A DNA stretch of 50,597 nucleotides from Shigella phage S2_02. Made by a program: the position numbers and the translations under genes. The stretch lies in the sequence record OQ223306; one strand, written 5' to 3'. This document shows, one piece after another, positions 9,130-50,002 of the stretch; the first letter of the stretch is position 1, and every line of letters starts with the position of its first letter. The notes under the pieces are model-generated. The model had not been told where the DNA came from. It saw only the letters and a list, made by a program, of their open reading frames with translations, and did not search any database.

Positions 9130-9705
9130 ATGGGTTTGACTATGAACACAGGATTAGCAAGAGAAGTAAGTTCAGATGATGAGGCGTGGTTGTTGGAGCA
9201 CGTATATTACGACGAATCATCACCTACATCGTTGAGATTTAAGAACATGTTTCATAGGAATAAGGAAAACTCCGCCGCATTCAGGGAGGTTACTAAAGAC
9301 GGTTATTTTAGAGGTCAGCGCGGTAGTAGGGGTAGGAGGTTTTTTGCTCATCGCGTGGTGTGGTTCCTTCATTATGGGGTATGGCCTGAAAAAATAGATC
9401 ACATTGATGGTGACAGACAAAACAATGCAGTAAAAAACCTGCAAGAAACTGACGCGATGAGGAATCAGCAGAATAGAGATTGCAATGATATTGCTGGTGG
9501 ATATTTTGAGAAAAGGGTTGGTCGATGGCATTGCAGGATTAAGAGGAAAGGCAAGGTAACATTCATTGGTTATTTTGACACTCCGGAAGAATGTAGAGCA
9601 GCATACGCGAAAGCGAAATTAGAAATTCATGAAAACTTGTGTGAAAGGTCATTTAATGAAGGGGAGTTGAAAAATGTTGCAATGGGAAGAGTTAAACAAT
9701 CTTGA
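9130..9705 (+). CDS. HNH endonuclease with AP2-like domain (191 aa)
   Basis: ORF track; HNH motif region HRVVWFLHYG...IDHIDGDRQNN; paralog of 38762..39241 and 49475..50002; overlaps TerL start by 32 nt. Confidence 0.75.
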   Translation: MGLTMNTGLAREVSSDDEAWLLEHVYYDESSPTSLRFKNMFHRNKENSAAFREVTKDGYFRGQRGSRGRRFFAHRVVWFLHYGVWPEKIDHIDGDRQNNAVKNLQETDAMRNQQNRDCNDIAGGYFEKRVGRWHCRIKRKGKVTFIGYFDTPEECRAAYAKAKLEIHENLCERSFNEGELKNVAMGRVKQS

Positions 9706-36746: not shown

Positions 36747-38765
36747 GTGACAATTAACATCAAAAAGCAAATCGCATTACTTGGCGAGGACTATATAAAA
36801 CGCACTCAAGAACGATTCACTGTCGGTGAGGTCGTTCCTTATCCGTATCAGGTTGTTGCTTATGCCGAGATCGCAAAACGCCTTTCAAATTACGAGCATC
36901 CATTCTTTGTTAAAGCGTCAGTATCTGCTGGTAAAACAATCATATTCGCTATGGTGGCAAAGCAGTGTCAAAAAATGGGATTGAAAATGCTTGTGCTTGC
37001 GAGGCAGGGTGAGATTGTCGATCAGGATAGTGAGGAGATCGATAACTTCGGGGTAACGAACTCCATCTTCTCAGCGTCGCTTGGAATCAAGTCCTGCTAC
37101 TTCCCGATCGTGGTTGGCTCTGAGGGTACTGTTGCAAATGGCCTAAACAATGAGTTGGCTGATTTTGTCCCGCATGTAATTGGGATCGACGAATGTCACC
37201 AGGTGGATTGGGAAGACCTTGCTCAAGCCATTGAAGGAAAGGAAACGATGGAGCAGATGAAGGGGGAGAAAGGGAAAGTTATTATGGACGGGGAGATTCC
37301 TCTGATTGGTAATGATGGGAAACCTTTACTTGGAACTAAGCGAAGCCAGTACACTATCGTAATCATGGAGATGATGCGTCGCTGTAAAGAGATTCACGGG
37401 CATGACCTCAGAATATTTGGCATGACAGGATCTGAATTTAGGGGCGTTGTTCCGATTCTGGTGGAGAATACAAAGGCGTTAGGATTCTGGCGTGAGCGCG
37501 TAACTGATATCGATACAAACTATCTGATTGAGTTCGGCTCTGTTGTGCCGACGATATTCGGTTCAACTGACGGAGTACACTACGATCTGGATAAGTTCAA
37601 GGCGTCAAGCGAGGACGGCGTACAGGACTTTACAGAGAAAGATATGAAGGCTATGGAAGATGAGATCCTTCATGATAAATCCCTGACTCAGCGAATCATG
37701 CAAATGGTCGCCAAAAAGGCAGAAGAACGCAATGCGGTCCTGATTACATGTGCCGGGGTGCGTCACTGTAAAGAGGCGGCGGCGGCACTTCCACCTGGAA
37801 GTACCTATGCAATTATCACTGGCGAAACAGACACCAAAACGCGCAAGAAGATTCTTGATGATGTGAGGGCCGGGAAAATTAAATACACCTTTCAGGTAAT
37901 GGCGCTCACTACTGGCGTTAACGTTCCAAATTGGGATTTCAGTGTCATACTCCGCAAGATAGGGTCGCTCACACTGTTGATTCAACTTTTGGGTAGGGGT
38001 ATGCGTCTGCTTAAACCCTGGCAGGTTGCTGAGGGAATGGTTAAGCAGGACCATCTGGTATGGGATTTCGCAGGTACGATGGATGAATTGGGTCAGCTTT
38101 ATTTCGATCCGATACTTGAGCAGGCACAATTCCAAAAGCGTTTTGAAAACGGCAAAGATCCGAAAACATGTCCGAAATGCGGTTGCGTAAATAGCTTCTA
38201 TGCTCGACGATGCGTTAACGTTATCGACGGCGAGCGCTGCGATCACTTCTGGACTTCTCAGATTTGCGAGGACCAGGTTGATGAACGTACCGGGAAAATT
38301 CTTGTTAAAGGGTGTGGTGCTGAGAATGACGTTGTGGCACGAGTCTGTCGTTGCTGTGATGTTTCTCTCGTCGATCCGAACCTGAAGTTGTCCGGTAAGG
38401 CGTACACTAAGAATGACTGGTACGAGGTCAAGAATTTTGAGGTTACGCTAACCAAAAACCAAAAGGGCGTGATATACAAATATACGCTGATTAATGATGA
38501 CGGCGATGAGTTCAAGGCGTATGAAAAATTCTTCCCTGAGTCCGACTCTAAGATTTGCGGTACGCTATGGAAAACGAAAGGTGTATTACCTCATGTGTCA
38601 GATCCTAAAATGCGTCGCTACTTTATTGGAATGAAGAACGCTATCAAGATCGTGCAATACTCGCATCATATAGCGCATCCGGTGCGCGTAACTCATCGCC
38701 GCAACCAGAAGAAAGAAGATATTATCTCACGCAAAGACTTCGGTATGGAGGATATCCCGGAATGA
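36747..38765 (+). CDS. superfamily-2 DNA helicase (DEAH-type) with C-terminal zinc-finger region (672 aa)
   Basis: ORF track (GTG start); Walker A SAGKT and motif II DECH; C-terminal Cys clusters. Confidence 0.8.
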   Translation: MTINIKKQIALLGEDYIKRTQERFTVGEVVPYPYQVVAYAEIAKRLSNYEHPFFVKASVSAGKTIIFAMVAKQCQKMGLKMLVLARQGEIVDQDSEEIDNFGVTNSIFSASLGIKSCYFPIVVGSEGTVANGLNNELADFVPHVIGIDECHQVDWEDLAQAIEGKETMEQMKGEKGKVIMDGEIPLIGNDGKPLLGTKRSQYTIVIMEMMRRCKEIHGHDLRIFGMTGSEFRGVVPILVENTKALGFWRERVTDIDTNYLIEFGSVVPTIFGSTDGVHYDLDKFKASSEDGVQDFTEKDMKAMEDEILHDKSLTQRIMQMVAKKAEERNAVLITCAGVRHCKEAAAALPPGSTYAIITGETDTKTRKKILDDVRAGKIKYTFQVMALTTGVNVPNWDFSVILRKIGSLTLLIQLLGRGMRLLKPWQVAEGMVKQDHLVWDFAGTMDELGQLYFDPILEQAQFQKRFENGKDPKTCPKCGCVNSFYARRCVNVIDGERCDHFWTSQICEDQVDERTGKILVKGCGAENDVVARVCRCCDVSLVDPNLKLSGKAYTKNDWYEVKNFEVTLTKNQKGVIYKYTLINDDGDEFKAYEKFFPESDSKICGTLWKTKGVLPHVSDPKMRRYFIGMKNAIKIVQYSHHIAHPVRVTHRRNQKKEDIISRKDFGMEDIPE

Positions 38766-39241
38766 TTGAATGGTCAAAATACCTTAAGTACAACTACGGT
38801 AATCTTTACTGGCTCGTCACTAGAAATAATAGAGTTCAAGCTGGAACGCTTGCTGGAACTATAAGTGATGAGGGTTACGTGAAAGTCATGATGCGCAAGA
38901 AGGCGTATCATGCTCATAGAATAATATGGGAGATGCACTACGGAAAAATACCCGAAGGGATGGAAGTAGACCATATAAATCACGACAGGACTGACAACAG
39001 AATAGAAAACCTTCGTCTTGTCACTAAGCAAGTTAACATGAAAAATAAATCATCATATTCAAATAACAAATCTGGCGTTACTGGAGTAAGCTGGCACTCA
39101 AAGAAAAAGAAATGGGTAGCTCAGATACAAAGCAACAAGAGGAAAAAGATGTTATATGAAGGGGATAGCTTTGATGATGCAGTGAAGGCGAGAAAGTCAG
39201 CAGAGATAGAGCTTGATTTTCATAAAAATCACGGGGTGTAA
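38762..39241 (+). CDS. HNH endonuclease with AP2-like domain (159 aa)
   Basis: ORF track; HRIIWEMHYGKIPEGMEVDHINHDRTDNRIENL HNH core; paralog of 9130 and 49475 genes. Confidence 0.8.
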   Translation: MIEWSKYLKYNYGNLYWLVTRNNRVQAGTLAGTISDEGYVKVMMRKKAYHAHRIIWEMHYGKIPEGMEVDHINHDRTDNRIENLRLVTKQVNMKNKSSYSNNKSGVTGVSWHSKKKKWVAQIQSNKRKKMLYEGDSFDDAVKARKSAEIELDFHKNHGV

Positions 39242-39242
39242 A

Positions 39243-39662
39243 ATGGCTGTACTAGATAAGGGTGATTATTTAGAATATTATGAACGAGATCCCAGCGATA
39301 CTCGAAAGGAGGTTGCTCATCAGATTGATAGCTTCCAGTGGCTAAAGCACAATCATCCGGAATTGCTTGCTTGGCATAGCGTTAATGAAAATAAGAAGAC
39401 AAAAGTTACCGCGATGATTGACCAGCAGTCAGGATTACTTAAGGGCGTATCAGACTTCGTTATCCTGATTGGTGTAAACTCACGTTACCCGTTCGCAGCT
39501 ATCGAACTCAAACGGGTTAATAAGTCCGGCAAAGGAAAAGCGTCACCAGTCAGCGATAAGCAAATTGAGTTTCTCAAAAAGGTTCGTGAACGCGGTGGAT
39601 TCTCTGCCGTTGCATACGGATTTGAGCAATTCAAGCTGGCAATATGCGATTTAACTAAATAG
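39243..39662 (+). CDS. putative VRR-NUC / PD-(D/E)XK nuclease (139 aa)
   Basis: ORF-track frame 39213..39662; ATG 39243 follows upstream stop; GVSDFVIL ... AIELKRVN resembles D...E.K nuclease motif. Confidence 0.5.
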   Translation: MAVLDKGDYLEYYERDPSDTRKEVAHQIDSFQWLKHNHPELLAWHSVNENKKTKVTAMIDQQSGLLKGVSDFVILIGVNSRYPFAAIELKRVNKSGKGKASPVSDKQIEFLKKVRERGGFSAVAYGFEQFKLAICDLTK

Positions 39663-39702
39663 CACTTTTTGCCAAACACGCCGGAATGGAATCTGGCATT
39701 AT
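39658..39702 (+). promoter_or_regulatory. Early-type promoter module upstream of dam (box + 18 bp + CATTAT)
   Basis: Box AATAGCACTTTTTGCCAAACA 39658-39678 includes upstream stop TAG; weak -10-like at 39697-39702. Confidence 0.4.
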
Positions 39703-39729
39703 TACCTCACCAAAACGAGAGGAATAAAA

Positions 39730-40443
39730 ATGAAAGACTTTAATGATATCTAAACCATAGACTTTGCAGATACTGGGTGCTCATTCACTCGTGAAGCAAT
39801 AGCATCAGGCGGTTATTATCAGGCATTGAAAACGCCAACCTGCAAAGAGATTTCAGGCCGTCGATACAAGGGAACCAATACACCTGACGCCGTTCGTGAT
39901 TTATGGTCAACTCCACGCGAGGTTATTGCATACCTTGAGGGGCGTTATGGGAAATATGATCTCGACGCTGCTGCAAGCGAGGAAAATAAAGTTTGCGAGA
40001 AGTTTTACTCCCAGGAAACAAACTGCTTAAAGCGTTGGTGGGGAAAGAATAAGCACGTTTGGTTAAATCCTCCTTATAGCCGACCTGATATATTCGTCAA
40101 GAAAGCGATTGAGCAAATGGAGCACAACAACCAGATCGATATGCTTTTACCTGCTGATAATTCTACAGCTTGGTTTACTGAGGCGCGACAGCACGCGGCT
40201 GAGATTATCTGGATTGAAGCGGATTTGACTGAGGATATCGACGGGAACGAGTACGCACGATCAGGTCGACTGGCGTTCATATCCGGTGAAACCGGAAAGG
40301 CCGTAGATGGTAATAACAAAGGTTCGGTAATTTTTATCATGCGCGAACTTAAAGAGGGTGAGACACAGCAAACTCACTATATCCCAATCACAAGCATTTG
40401 CCCTTCGGTGAAAAACAAGCGAGCAAAAGTGAGGAAAGTATAA
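39730..40443 (+). pseudogene. dam: dam-like gene in its full-length frame, interrupted by in-frame TAA at 39751-39753
   Basis: ATG 39730 with SD GAGAGGAA is in frame with the methyltransferase ORF but separated by TAA after 7 codons; could be nonsense mutation, sequencing error or recoding. Confidence 0.4.
39826..40443 (+). CDS. dam: DNA N6-adenine methyltransferase (phage Dam family) (205 aa from TTG start)
   Basis: ORF track; catalytic NPPYS motif and DLDAAAS region; only TTG start available downstream of the in-frame stop. Confidence 0.6.
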   Translation: MKTPTCKEISGRRYKGTNTPDAVRDLWSTPREVIAYLEGRYGKYDLDAAASEENKVCEKFYSQETNCLKRWWGKNKHVWLNPPYSRPDIFVKKAIEQMEHNNQIDMLLPADNSTAWFTEARQHAAEIIWIEADLTEDIDGNEYARSGRLAFISGETGKAVDGNNKGSVIFIMRELKEGETQQTHYIPITSICPSVKNKRAKVRKV

Positions 40444-40691
40444 TGAACGAGAAAATGACTCCGGTTAAGTTAACTGATCAAGGTTTATGGCTACTTTATC
40501 GAGCTACATGCTGCGAAATTATGGAGCAAAACGGATTGACTCAGGATGTTATTGGTTGCGATCTGTGGGAGTTCACTAGTTCTCTTGATATGTCTTTTGA
40601 TGAGATAAAAAATGAATACATTGAGAATTGGCCCTCAATCATCCAAAAAGACGTAGAAGAACTTTCTTCTGAGATAATTACGCAGCACTAA
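40443..40691 (+). CDS. hypothetical protein (82 aa)
   Basis: ORF-track frame 40398..40691; ATG 40443 overlaps dam stop (TAATG) with SD GAGGAAAG. Confidence 0.5.
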   Translation: MNEKMTPVKLTDQGLWLLYRATCCEIMEQNGLTQDVIGCDLWEFTSSLDMSFDEIKNEYIENWPSIIQKDVEELSSEIITQH

Positions 40692-42742: not shown

Positions 42743-42919
42743 ATGAAGCGAGTTAAGTGCATCCGAAATGACTCCAAAACACTTCCATTCCGCGTAAATC
42801 AGATCTATAGTGTTGGTTATGATTTCGGTGGTGGATTATTTGAGATTTACGACGGGCGAGATTCAGCAATCCAATCTCCCCTGAATGGTCATTATCTGGA
42901 ATTTATTGAGATAGATTAA
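42743..42919 (+). CDS. hypothetical small protein (58 aa)
   Basis: ATG with SD AAAGAGGA downstream of module 42669-42713; below ORF-track cutoff; followed by terminator. Confidence 0.45.
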   Translation: MKRVKCIRNDSKTLPFRVNQIYSVGYDFGGGLFEIYDGRDSAIQSPLNGHYLEFIEID

Positions 42920-47858: not shown

Positions 47859-48009
47859 GTCGAACGCGGAACGTGTTCATAAATCCCTCGTTATTCTTCA
47901 ATAACTCGAAGGCGTCCGTAGCTTCAATGGCGCTACTACCCATGTAAGCGATTACTTTTTTCTTAGTCTTGCGTGAGATCGCCACCACGCGGTAAATATT
48001 ATCACTCAT
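47809..48009 (-). CDS. hypothetical protein (66 aa)
   Basis: ORF-track frame 47809..48027; ATG 48009 preferred (SD AAGGAGG 7 nt upstream). Confidence 0.5.
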   Translation of the reverse strand: MSDNIYRVVAISRKTKKKVIAYMGSSAIEATDAFELLKNNEGFMNTFRVRLERLEPVIIDEARKLS

Positions 48010-48202
48010 ACAATGCCTCCTTAACACGATCCGCTACACATGAGTTAACGGTGATTGAATAGTTTGTCACGCCCCATAATGCAATATTGCCAAGCTCGGT
48101 ACGCATAGATGGATTGTTTAGCTGGATGATTGTCTCGCCAGTATCGTCATCGAAGAAACGAGACGCGCCAGAACGGTCCACCACGCGCGTTACGCGGTTC
48201 AC
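48002..48202 (-). CDS. hypothetical protein (66 aa)
   Basis: ORF track (GTG start); weak SD. Confidence 0.4.
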   Translation of the reverse strand: MNRVTRVVDRSGASRFFDDDTGETIIQLNNPSMRTELGNIALWGVTNYSITVNSCVADRVKEALYE

Positions 48203-48205
48203 GCA

Positions 48206-48373
48206 CTACATTACATCACTTACGCCGTAATAAGCGCTCAGAGCGGATCTCAAGGCCTTCTCTTGCTTGTTGTAAATATTGCGCGCGATGTTCTCGATCG
48301 CCACGCTTTCTTTCTCGTCAGTCTGGATTGCAGTGCTGGCTGAGAAGTCCAGATCTGTGAACTGATTAAACAT
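48206..48373 (-). CDS. hypothetical protein (55 aa)
   Basis: ORF-track frame 48206..48418; ATG 48373 (SD GAGGAAAG) is the first start downstream of predicted start of module 48405-48449. Confidence 0.45.
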   Translation of the reverse strand: MFNQFTDLDFSASTAIQTDEKESVAIENIARNIYNKQEKALRSALSAYYGVSDVM

Positions 48374-49434: not shown

Positions 49435-49479
49435 ATTATGCCAAATCACACCGATCGAGTTTTAACAAAAAGTGCTATT
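49435..49479 (-). promoter_or_regulatory. Leftward early promoter module (box + 18 bp + CATAAT)
   Basis: Box 49459-49479 contains stop of HNH gene; minus-strand -10 at 49435-49440. Confidence 0.45.
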
Positions 49480-50002
49480 TGCCGTGGTTTTCATGGTATC
49501 CGTGTTCATATTCAGCGGCTTTCTTTGCGGAAATCGCATCATCAAAACTTGAGAAGCACCCTATGTAAATTCTCCTTCCTCGCTTTCCCCCTCCAATCCT
49601 TACAACCCATTTGCCATGTTTATTTTTATGCACACCTGGTATGCCACTTGTATTGTTTTTCTGTTTTGATGTGTTTCGCATATTTCCTTTGTGATCTTTT
49701 AGCTCAAAGTTTATTGCTCTGTTATCAGTCGTAATGTGATTTACGTGATCAACCTCCTTTCCTTCAGGTATAGTCCCATAGTGCATTTCATAGCATATTC
49801 TATGAACTTTTAGGTTATAACGTTTTCCGTTTATAGTAAGTGCGGTTTCTAAATATCTGCCACCACTACCCAAAGAGCCAACCTCATTACCAGCATTGCA
49901 AGCATTCCATTGTTTAACTCTTGATTTGTGGATATCTTTTCTTTCTTTCCAGAACAGCTTTCCAGTTTTCGGATTGTATGTAAAGTAATCATGCCAATTC
50001 AT
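49475..50002 (-). CDS. HNH endonuclease with AP2-like domain (175 aa)
   Basis: ORF track; HRICYEMHYGTIPEGKEVDHVNHITTDNR HNH core; paralog of 9130 and 38762 genes. Confidence 0.8.
   Translation of the reverse strand: MNWHDYFTYNPKTGKLFWKERKDIHKSRVKQWNACNAGNEVGSLGSGGRYLETALTINGKRYNLKVHRICYEMHYGTIPEGKEVDHVNHITTDNRAINFELKDHKGNMRNTSKQKNNTSGIPGVHKNKHGKWVVRIGGGKRGRRIYIGCFSSFDDAISAKKAAEYEHGYHENHGK

Follow-up and report, generated by a model that had tools for sequence, protein, structure and literature searches.

The dam gene of Shigella phage S2_02 is interrupted at codon 8 by an in-frame ochre codon, which we consider probably to be a real, private and recent mutation (E8 ochre) giving rise to a null or strongly reduced allele in a phage that remains viable. 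The window analysed was the whole 50,597-bp record (OQ223306), a complete Tunavirus (Drexlerviridae) genome collinear with T1. The right 20 kb of this genome is ~92% identical to Shigella phage Shfl1 and other T1-like phages, and the 900 bp round the dam lesion exhibited 91 to 93% identity to ~50 tunavirus records. An earlier note on this DNA had reported a dam methyltransferase gene with a TAA seven codons after its probable start and had offered a nonsense allele, a sequencing error or recoding as possible explanations. The features of the locus relevant to this question are listed here.

~39680..39707, plus strand: intergenic hairpin with an AU-rich tail, 5′ of dam; equivalent to the rho-independent terminator predicted in the T1 RefSeq record (T1 38973-39001); fold z = -2.69
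39717..39724, plus strand: Shine-Dalgarno sequence GAGAGGAA for the conserved ATG at 39730 (sequence; the T1 ribosome binding site is annotated at the equivalent GAGG; anti-SD duplex of -6.0 kcal/mol)
39730..39753, plus strand: remnant 7-codon ORF, MKDFNDI followed by a stop (sequence)
39730..40443, plus strand: frame of dam (T1-type DNA N6-adenine methyltransferase), 237 codons plus a terminal TAA, broken at codon 8 (tblastn with T1 Dam; Pfam)
39751..39753, plus strand: premature ochre TAA; base 39751 is T versus G (GAA, Glu8) in 29/29 relatives (alignments and translations)
39826..40443, plus strand: residual 205-aa ORF opened by a TTG and equivalent to Dam residues 33-237; might be made at a low level by restart (ORF list)
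40066..40077, plus strand: catalytic NPPY motif (AAT CCT CCT TAT, residues 113-116), intact (sequence and family alignment)
40441..40445, plus strand: TAATG overlap between the dam stop (40441-40443) and the start of the next gene (40443..40691, T1 orf19 homologue) (sequence)

Identity of the interrupted gene

A tblastn search of S2_02 with T1 Dam (M.EcoT1Dam; AAP49979 / YP_003925), for which GATC methylation activity has been demonstrated (PMC10470545), detected a match in which 233 of 237 residues (98%) were identical and which contained one in-alignment stop. The read-through translation was 237 aa in length, as for T1 Dam and as had been estimated for a product without the stop. This translation matched Pfam family PF05869 over aa 49-236 with a score of 234.7 bits versus a gathering score of 28.1, and the best Dam homologues all bear PF05869, confirming the initial assignment of the gene as a T1-type dam. 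As in T1, the gene is located between a VRR-NUC resolvase gene and the orf19 homologue, and it has the same start, Shine-Dalgarno sequence, 237-codon frame, NPPY motif and TAATG overlap with the next gene. The difference from T1 lies in codon 8, which is GAA in T1 but TAA in S2_02, such that no full-length protein results from standard decoding.

In an alignment of 64 members of the Dam family, N113 and P114 were invariant and P115 and Y116 nearly so. Residues D79, R180 and F183 were also invariant in this alignment, and all of these invariant residues are present in the S2_02 dam. An AlphaFold2 model of a near-identical full-length Dam homologue had a mean pLDDT of 88.5 and a class I SAM-dependent methyltransferase fold. 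The best Foldseek matches of this model in the PDB were the N6-adenine methyltransferases PCIF1, CamA and TaqI, all of which were distant (E = 1e-5 to 3e-3; TM of 0.34 to 0.44), while a sequence search of the PDB with Dam, performed to obtain a structure for judging the N-terminus, produced no match. A full-length PF05869 enzyme requires an uninterrupted ORF, and that of the S2_02 dam is interrupted. Applying this test of ORF integrity, the S2_02 dam is, as read from its sequence, a disrupted allele or pseudogene of the Phage Dam family and not a functional member.

Position of the start and stop codons

The bases from 39730 to 39753 are ATG AAA GAC TTT AAT GAT ATC TAA, confirming that an ATG in frame with the Dam ORF is followed by an in-frame TAA at 39751-39753. 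Codon 8 was examined in a comparison set of 29 tunaviruses, which includes T1, ULIM2, LHE71, 13 IMG/VR genomes and 12 further GenBank records. This comparison with related T1-like dam genes, suggested as a check in the earlier note, detected GAA (Glu) at codon 8 in 29 of the 29 relatives, indicating that the S2_02 stop was due to one private G-to-T transversion at 39751 and supporting the nonsense allele among the explanations originally offered. An intact 237-aa dam ORF was present from the same ATG in 27 of these 29 genomes.

The ATG at 39730 aligned without a mismatch to the dam start annotated in T1, ULIM2, LHE71 and 11 further records. Homologues starting at the equivalent of 39826, whose existence had been proposed as grounds for doubting the upstream start, were not found, and every close homologue starts at the equivalent of 39730. 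This ATG precedes the in-frame TTG at 39826 by 96 nt (32 codons). No in-frame ATG, GTG or TTG is present between the stop at 39751-39753 and 39826, in agreement with the TTG having been described as the only downstream start; it opens the 205-aa ORF. A Shine-Dalgarno sequence does precede the ATG, as had been claimed, and is conserved, but its details were corrected to GAGAGGAA at 39717-39724. Among the dam genes of the relatives, pN/pS was 0.052 for codons 1-32 and 0.026 for codons 33-237. Codons 1-32 are, hence, under purifying selection in the relatives, indicating that the upstream ATG is the real start and that the N-terminal segment is translated and constrained. To judge from these alignments, the occurrence of the ATG at 39730 ahead of the 205-aa ORF is not a chance arrangement of ORFs.

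Signals flanking dam

A promoter module had been proposed upstream of dam. This proposal was not sustained, as a scan detected no sigma-70-like site in 39353-39730 and the element concerned, the hairpin, matches the predicted terminator of the T1 RefSeq record; a promoter directly upstream of dam was, therefore, rejected. At the other end of the gene, the same overlap is annotated in T1, in which 39737 is both the last base of dam and the first of orf19. The TAATG arrangement suggests translational coupling, which would be broken by the early stop. As ~690 nt are left untranslated by this stop, expression of the orf19 homologue may be reduced due to lost coupling or to polarity. The orf19 homologue has a strong Shine-Dalgarno sequence of its own (GAGGAAAG, 40431-40438), and its expression may, hence, persist in spite of the upstream nonsense codon.

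Age and distribution of the allele

A column-by-column comparison of dam with 14 tunavirus genomes detected two changes private to S2_02, the nonsense change and a synonymous change at 40170. Relative to the relatives compared, there were no indels in the S2_02 dam and no private amino-acid changes 3′ of the stop. For codons 33-237, dN/dS between S2_02 and each relative ranged from 0.004 to 0.04 at dS values of 0.2 to 0.56. The undamaged state of the remainder of dam is indicative of strong purifying selection for essentially all of the divergence and of a very recent lesion. This pattern of substitutions places the origin of the stop in the very recent past, provided that expression of the downstream ORF, and selection on it, have ceased.

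Exact-pattern searches of IMG/VR, JGI metagenomes and GTDB genomes did not detect the TAA allele, while the wild-type pattern was detected 8 times in IMG/VR and 5 times in JGI metagenomes. An exact-protein look-up of the 205-aa ORF also produced no match. The TAA allele was, hence, found in no other public sequence, which leaves it without independent confirmation. The closest local relative is LHE71, which is 96.5% identical over 38700-39800 and has a G at the equivalent of 39751. This phage shares the local context of S2_02, namely, the HNH gene at 38762-39241 and a divergent variant of the VRR-NUC gene. Import of the stop together with the adjacent recombination tract was rejected because LHE71 has the tract yet keeps GAA.

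Premature stops in dam and other genes of tunaviruses

Another tunavirus, Escherichia phage JMPW2 (KU194205), likewise has a dam that is conserved except for one premature stop; codon 99 has changed from TGC to TGA, and the gene is annotated as two CDSs. This phage is a laboratory contaminant isolate with E. coli JM110 as the recorded host and was sequenced by Ion Torrent. As the position and the codon differ from those of S2_02, the JMPW2 stop represents an independent event; it is located upstream of NPPY, and hence no restart product could be active. The split dam gene is not mentioned in the JMPW2 genome announcement. The dam gene of Shigella phage vB_SsoS_008 (MK335533; IMGVR_UViG_2974611450) has an ochre codon at E22 and a 7-aa insertion. 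Over the 16.5 kb compared, 260 private substitutions were counted in this record, of which 181 are non-synonymous and many are transversions, and 7 of 26 right-arm genes, dam included, have internal stops. It looks like a low-accuracy sequence and is not to serve as evidence of natural gene loss. In a more distant member of the Drexlerviridae (IMGVR_UViG_2974632794; 53,145 bp; ~66% Dam identity), dam has a frameshift at about residue 165 with loss of the C-terminal third.

Premature stops were not confined to dam. The T1 orf1 homologue of S2_02 (48005-48373, minus strand) has a GAG-to-TAG change at codon 56 (48208..48206) and is split into 70-aa and 66-aa ORFs. This codon is GAG in ULIM2, JMPW1 and T1, and the S2_02 change is, as in dam, a Glu-to-stop change due to G to T; four private G-to-T changes were observed in the 111-nt neighbourhood of this stop. 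An excess of G:C-to-T:A changes, as might arise from 8-oxoG damage, a mutY-type host or an oxidation artefact, was considered and rejected, since C>A changes accounted for 25% of the 106 private changes of S2_02 and this total was ordinary. The C>A share in 14 other tunavirus genomes was 13 to 34% (16 to 34% without vB_SsoS_008). At least one premature stop was present in 5 of 14 tunavirus genomes for the same 27 genes, such that these lesions are by no means rare in tunavirus records. The T1 orf14 homologue (58 aa; 42743-42916 in S2_02) has independent premature stops in ULIM2 and pSf-2, at codons 34 and 53, and may be another dispensable, often hit gene. With vB_SsoS_008 set aside, 2 of 6 nonsense events were in dam, which constitutes 4.4% of the surveyed coding length; an enrichment of nonsense events in dam is only suggestive.

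Alternative explanations for the stop

The stop could have arisen through an error in sequencing or assembly, or by incorporation of a sub-population variant into the consensus, with the real phage having GAA and producing a normal 237-aa Dam. This explanation is prompted by the nature of the change, a single base unique in comparison to 29 relatives and absent from three public collections, and by the second private premature stop of S2_02 (GAG to TAG, 48208..48206); furthermore, vB_SsoS_008 (260 private changes; 7 genes with stops) demonstrates that error-rich tunavirus records exist. The S2_02 record, however, does not exhibit the general signs of such errors. A tblastn analysis of the 78 annotated T1 CDSs against S2_02 for frameshifts and stops detected in-alignment stops in two genes only, dam and the T1 orf1 homologue, and the conserved genes were without frameshifts (full-length matches were single HSPs). 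The private substitutions, 106 in 16.5 kb, were within the range of other genomes in both count and spectrum, and 39751 is outside the homopolymers and GATC/CCWGG motifs where long-read errors cluster. The assembly looks to be of good quality, and substitution errors are rare in a high-coverage consensus, which also counts against an error; we regard this explanation as unlikely. Much the least probable explanation was that full-length Dam is produced through programmed recoding of the TAA, be it by readthrough, code reassignment, a suppressor tRNA or bypass. The sole point in its favour is the conservation of an intact frame 3′ of the stop. A stop at codon 8 was found in 0 of 29 tunaviruses and, hence, is not a conserved feature, while the use of TAA to end dam itself (40441-40443) indicates that this codon has not been reassigned. 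No tRNA genes were detected in S2_02 by ARAGORN, and a suppressor tRNA or code change was rejected as there is no tRNA gene; ribosomal bypass or hopping was rejected as no matched take-off and landing codons were seen in 39740-39780. To our knowledge, no known readthrough or bypass signal is visible in this interval, and in E. coli UAA is the stop codon at which termination is most efficient. Recoding, as offered in the earlier note, is rejected on these features of the sequence, namely, the lack of conservation of the stop, the lack of tRNA genes and the use of TAA as a true terminator.

A further possibility is that the mutation is real but leaky, with translation restarting at the TTG at 39826 or nearby and generating a Dam product shortened to residues 33-237 and still capable of GATC methylation. 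E. coli lacI and T4 rIIB provide the classical examples of early nonsense codons followed by restarts at GUG, AUG or UUG. The 205-aa ORF retains the whole Pfam Dam core (aa 49-236), and most of the distant PF05869 members, obtained from a search of 1.8 billion cluster representatives, are 150-200 aa in length and align only from query residue ~46-57, indicating that the family works without the extension. In the AlphaFold2 model, pLDDT values were 50-59 for residues 1-30 and ≥90 from residue ~51, such that the N-terminus is not confidently placed in the predicted fold. An undamaged downstream ORF would also be expected if a restart product was still selected. The Shine-Dalgarno sequence before the TTG had been considered poor, which was correct for spacing but not for strength. 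The AGGCGG has a duplex energy of -6.5 kcal/mol, a value near the genome median for real starts and reached by 6% of plus-strand TTGs, but it is ~13 nt 5′ of the TTG, which is too far, while a second AGG is 2 nt 5′ and too close. The TTG is, moreover, a weak start at a distance of 72 nt from the stop, and the region round it is predicted to be base-paired (-13.7 kcal/mol). Lengths of 221-250 aa were observed throughout the best 120 Drexlerviridae homologue clusters, purifying selection acts on codons 1-32 (pN/pS of 0.052) and a restart would cut a conserved GG(Y/H)YQA(L/V)KP motif in the extension. The retention and constraint of the extension and the presence of this motif indicate that the extension matters in this lineage, and continued methylation by a restart product was considered improbable.

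Expected consequences of the E8 ochre allele

The observations on the S2_02 genome are the gene identity, a stop that is unique in its location at codon 8, a remaining frame that is intact and strongly constrained, and the lack of a recoding apparatus. For a real E8 ochre allele, the private G-to-T change at 39751 would convert Glu8 (GAA) into an ochre stop, and ribosomes starting at the ATG at 39730 would release the heptapeptide MKDFNDI. Little or no full-length Dam would be made, and the allele would probably be null or strongly reduced in activity. The 242 GATC sites of S2_02, a count similar to those of its relatives, would then be methylated only partly, by the host Dam, and virion DNA would be under-methylated. 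The right end of the S2_02 genome does not contain a second methyltransferase gene as possible compensation, an HNH endonuclease ORF being present there instead; Shfl1 differs in encoding a 'site specific DNA methylase' in the equivalent region, which S2_02 is without.

The phage would remain viable due to the dispensability of T1-type Dam. A CRISPR-made dam deletion of T1, CC20 (mBio 2023), was viable with a burst of ~60% of wild type (PMC10470545), and its DNA was only partly methylated by the host Dam (PMC10470545). The viability of this deletion indicates that a null allele is compatible with an isolable phage, and the S2_02 lesion is best read as resulting in a null or strongly reduced allele. 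Both CC20 and S2_02, the latter as known from sequence, are T1-type phages without a functional dam. They differ in that CC20 has a deliberate CRISPR deletion, whereas S2_02 has a spontaneous-looking point mutation in an ORF that is otherwise kept and that could revert or leak. The S2_02 lesion is another case of a known type of event, a single point mutation in a gene whose dispensability had been demonstrated in T1.

If the mutation is real, S2_02 would be a natural dam-deficient tunavirus, with DNA under-methylated at 242 GATC sites and a somewhat smaller burst, judged from the published T1 deletion; its sensitivity to defences responding to GATC methylation or to methyltransferases may also differ. 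Knowledge of dam status would, hence, be useful before this phage is utilized in host-range, restriction or defence-system assays. Gene callers would either miss dam or call a 205-aa protein from the TTG, while the locus should be annotated as a disrupted dam allele (E8 ochre).

Possible selection for loss of dam

With S2_02, the small number of T1-like dam genes that have been broken independently increases by one, raising the possibility of selection against the methylase. A stronger proposal, that the dam knockout is a selected escape allele and that tunaviruses repeatedly lose dam by independent mutations, is speculative and, in our estimation, rather improbable. Under this proposal, T1-type Dam would be sensed by a host defence, e.g., a retron with GATC in its msDNA, or, alternatively, its product G6mATC would be targeted by a methylation-dependent nuclease; in a milder form, a leaky restart allele would bring the amount of Dam below the level at which the defence is triggered. 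Retron-Sen2 is triggered by GATC Dam enzymes, that of phage P1 included, which methylate the msDNA of this retron (bioRxiv 10.1101/2020.06.22.160242). The Drexlerviridae phage K42 escapes retron Ec86 by disruption of a Dcm-like methyltransferase gene (bioRxiv 10.1101/2023.08.16.553469), the escape lesions being a deletion, a frameshift and an upstream point mutation in this non-essential gene, which is the trigger of the defence (bioRxiv 10.1101/2023.08.16.553469). As phage DNA methyltransferases are known retron triggers, selection for dam loss is conceivable. The K42 gene differs in encoding a C5-cytosine methyltransferase and not a Dam, and by analogy provides only a possible rationale for dam loss in S2_02.

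Endonuclease genes and the region adjacent to dam

The HNH (AP2-type) homing-endonuclease ORF at 38762-39241 is located between the helicase and VRR-NUC resolvase genes and is absent from T1 and most tunaviruses. The VRR-NUC gene (39249-39659) contains 36 of the 106 private substitutions of S2_02 (36 in 411 nt, 88 per kb), and its protein is just 77% identical to that of T1. The HNH and VRR-NUC region looks like a co-conversion or recombination tract that came with the endonuclease. Two more HNH-endonuclease-like ORFs, at 9166-9603 and 49475-50002 (minus strand), have 29 to 42% identity to T1 HNH proteins; one of these is located between the small and large terminase genes and the other near the right end, at the position of the Shfl1 methylase.
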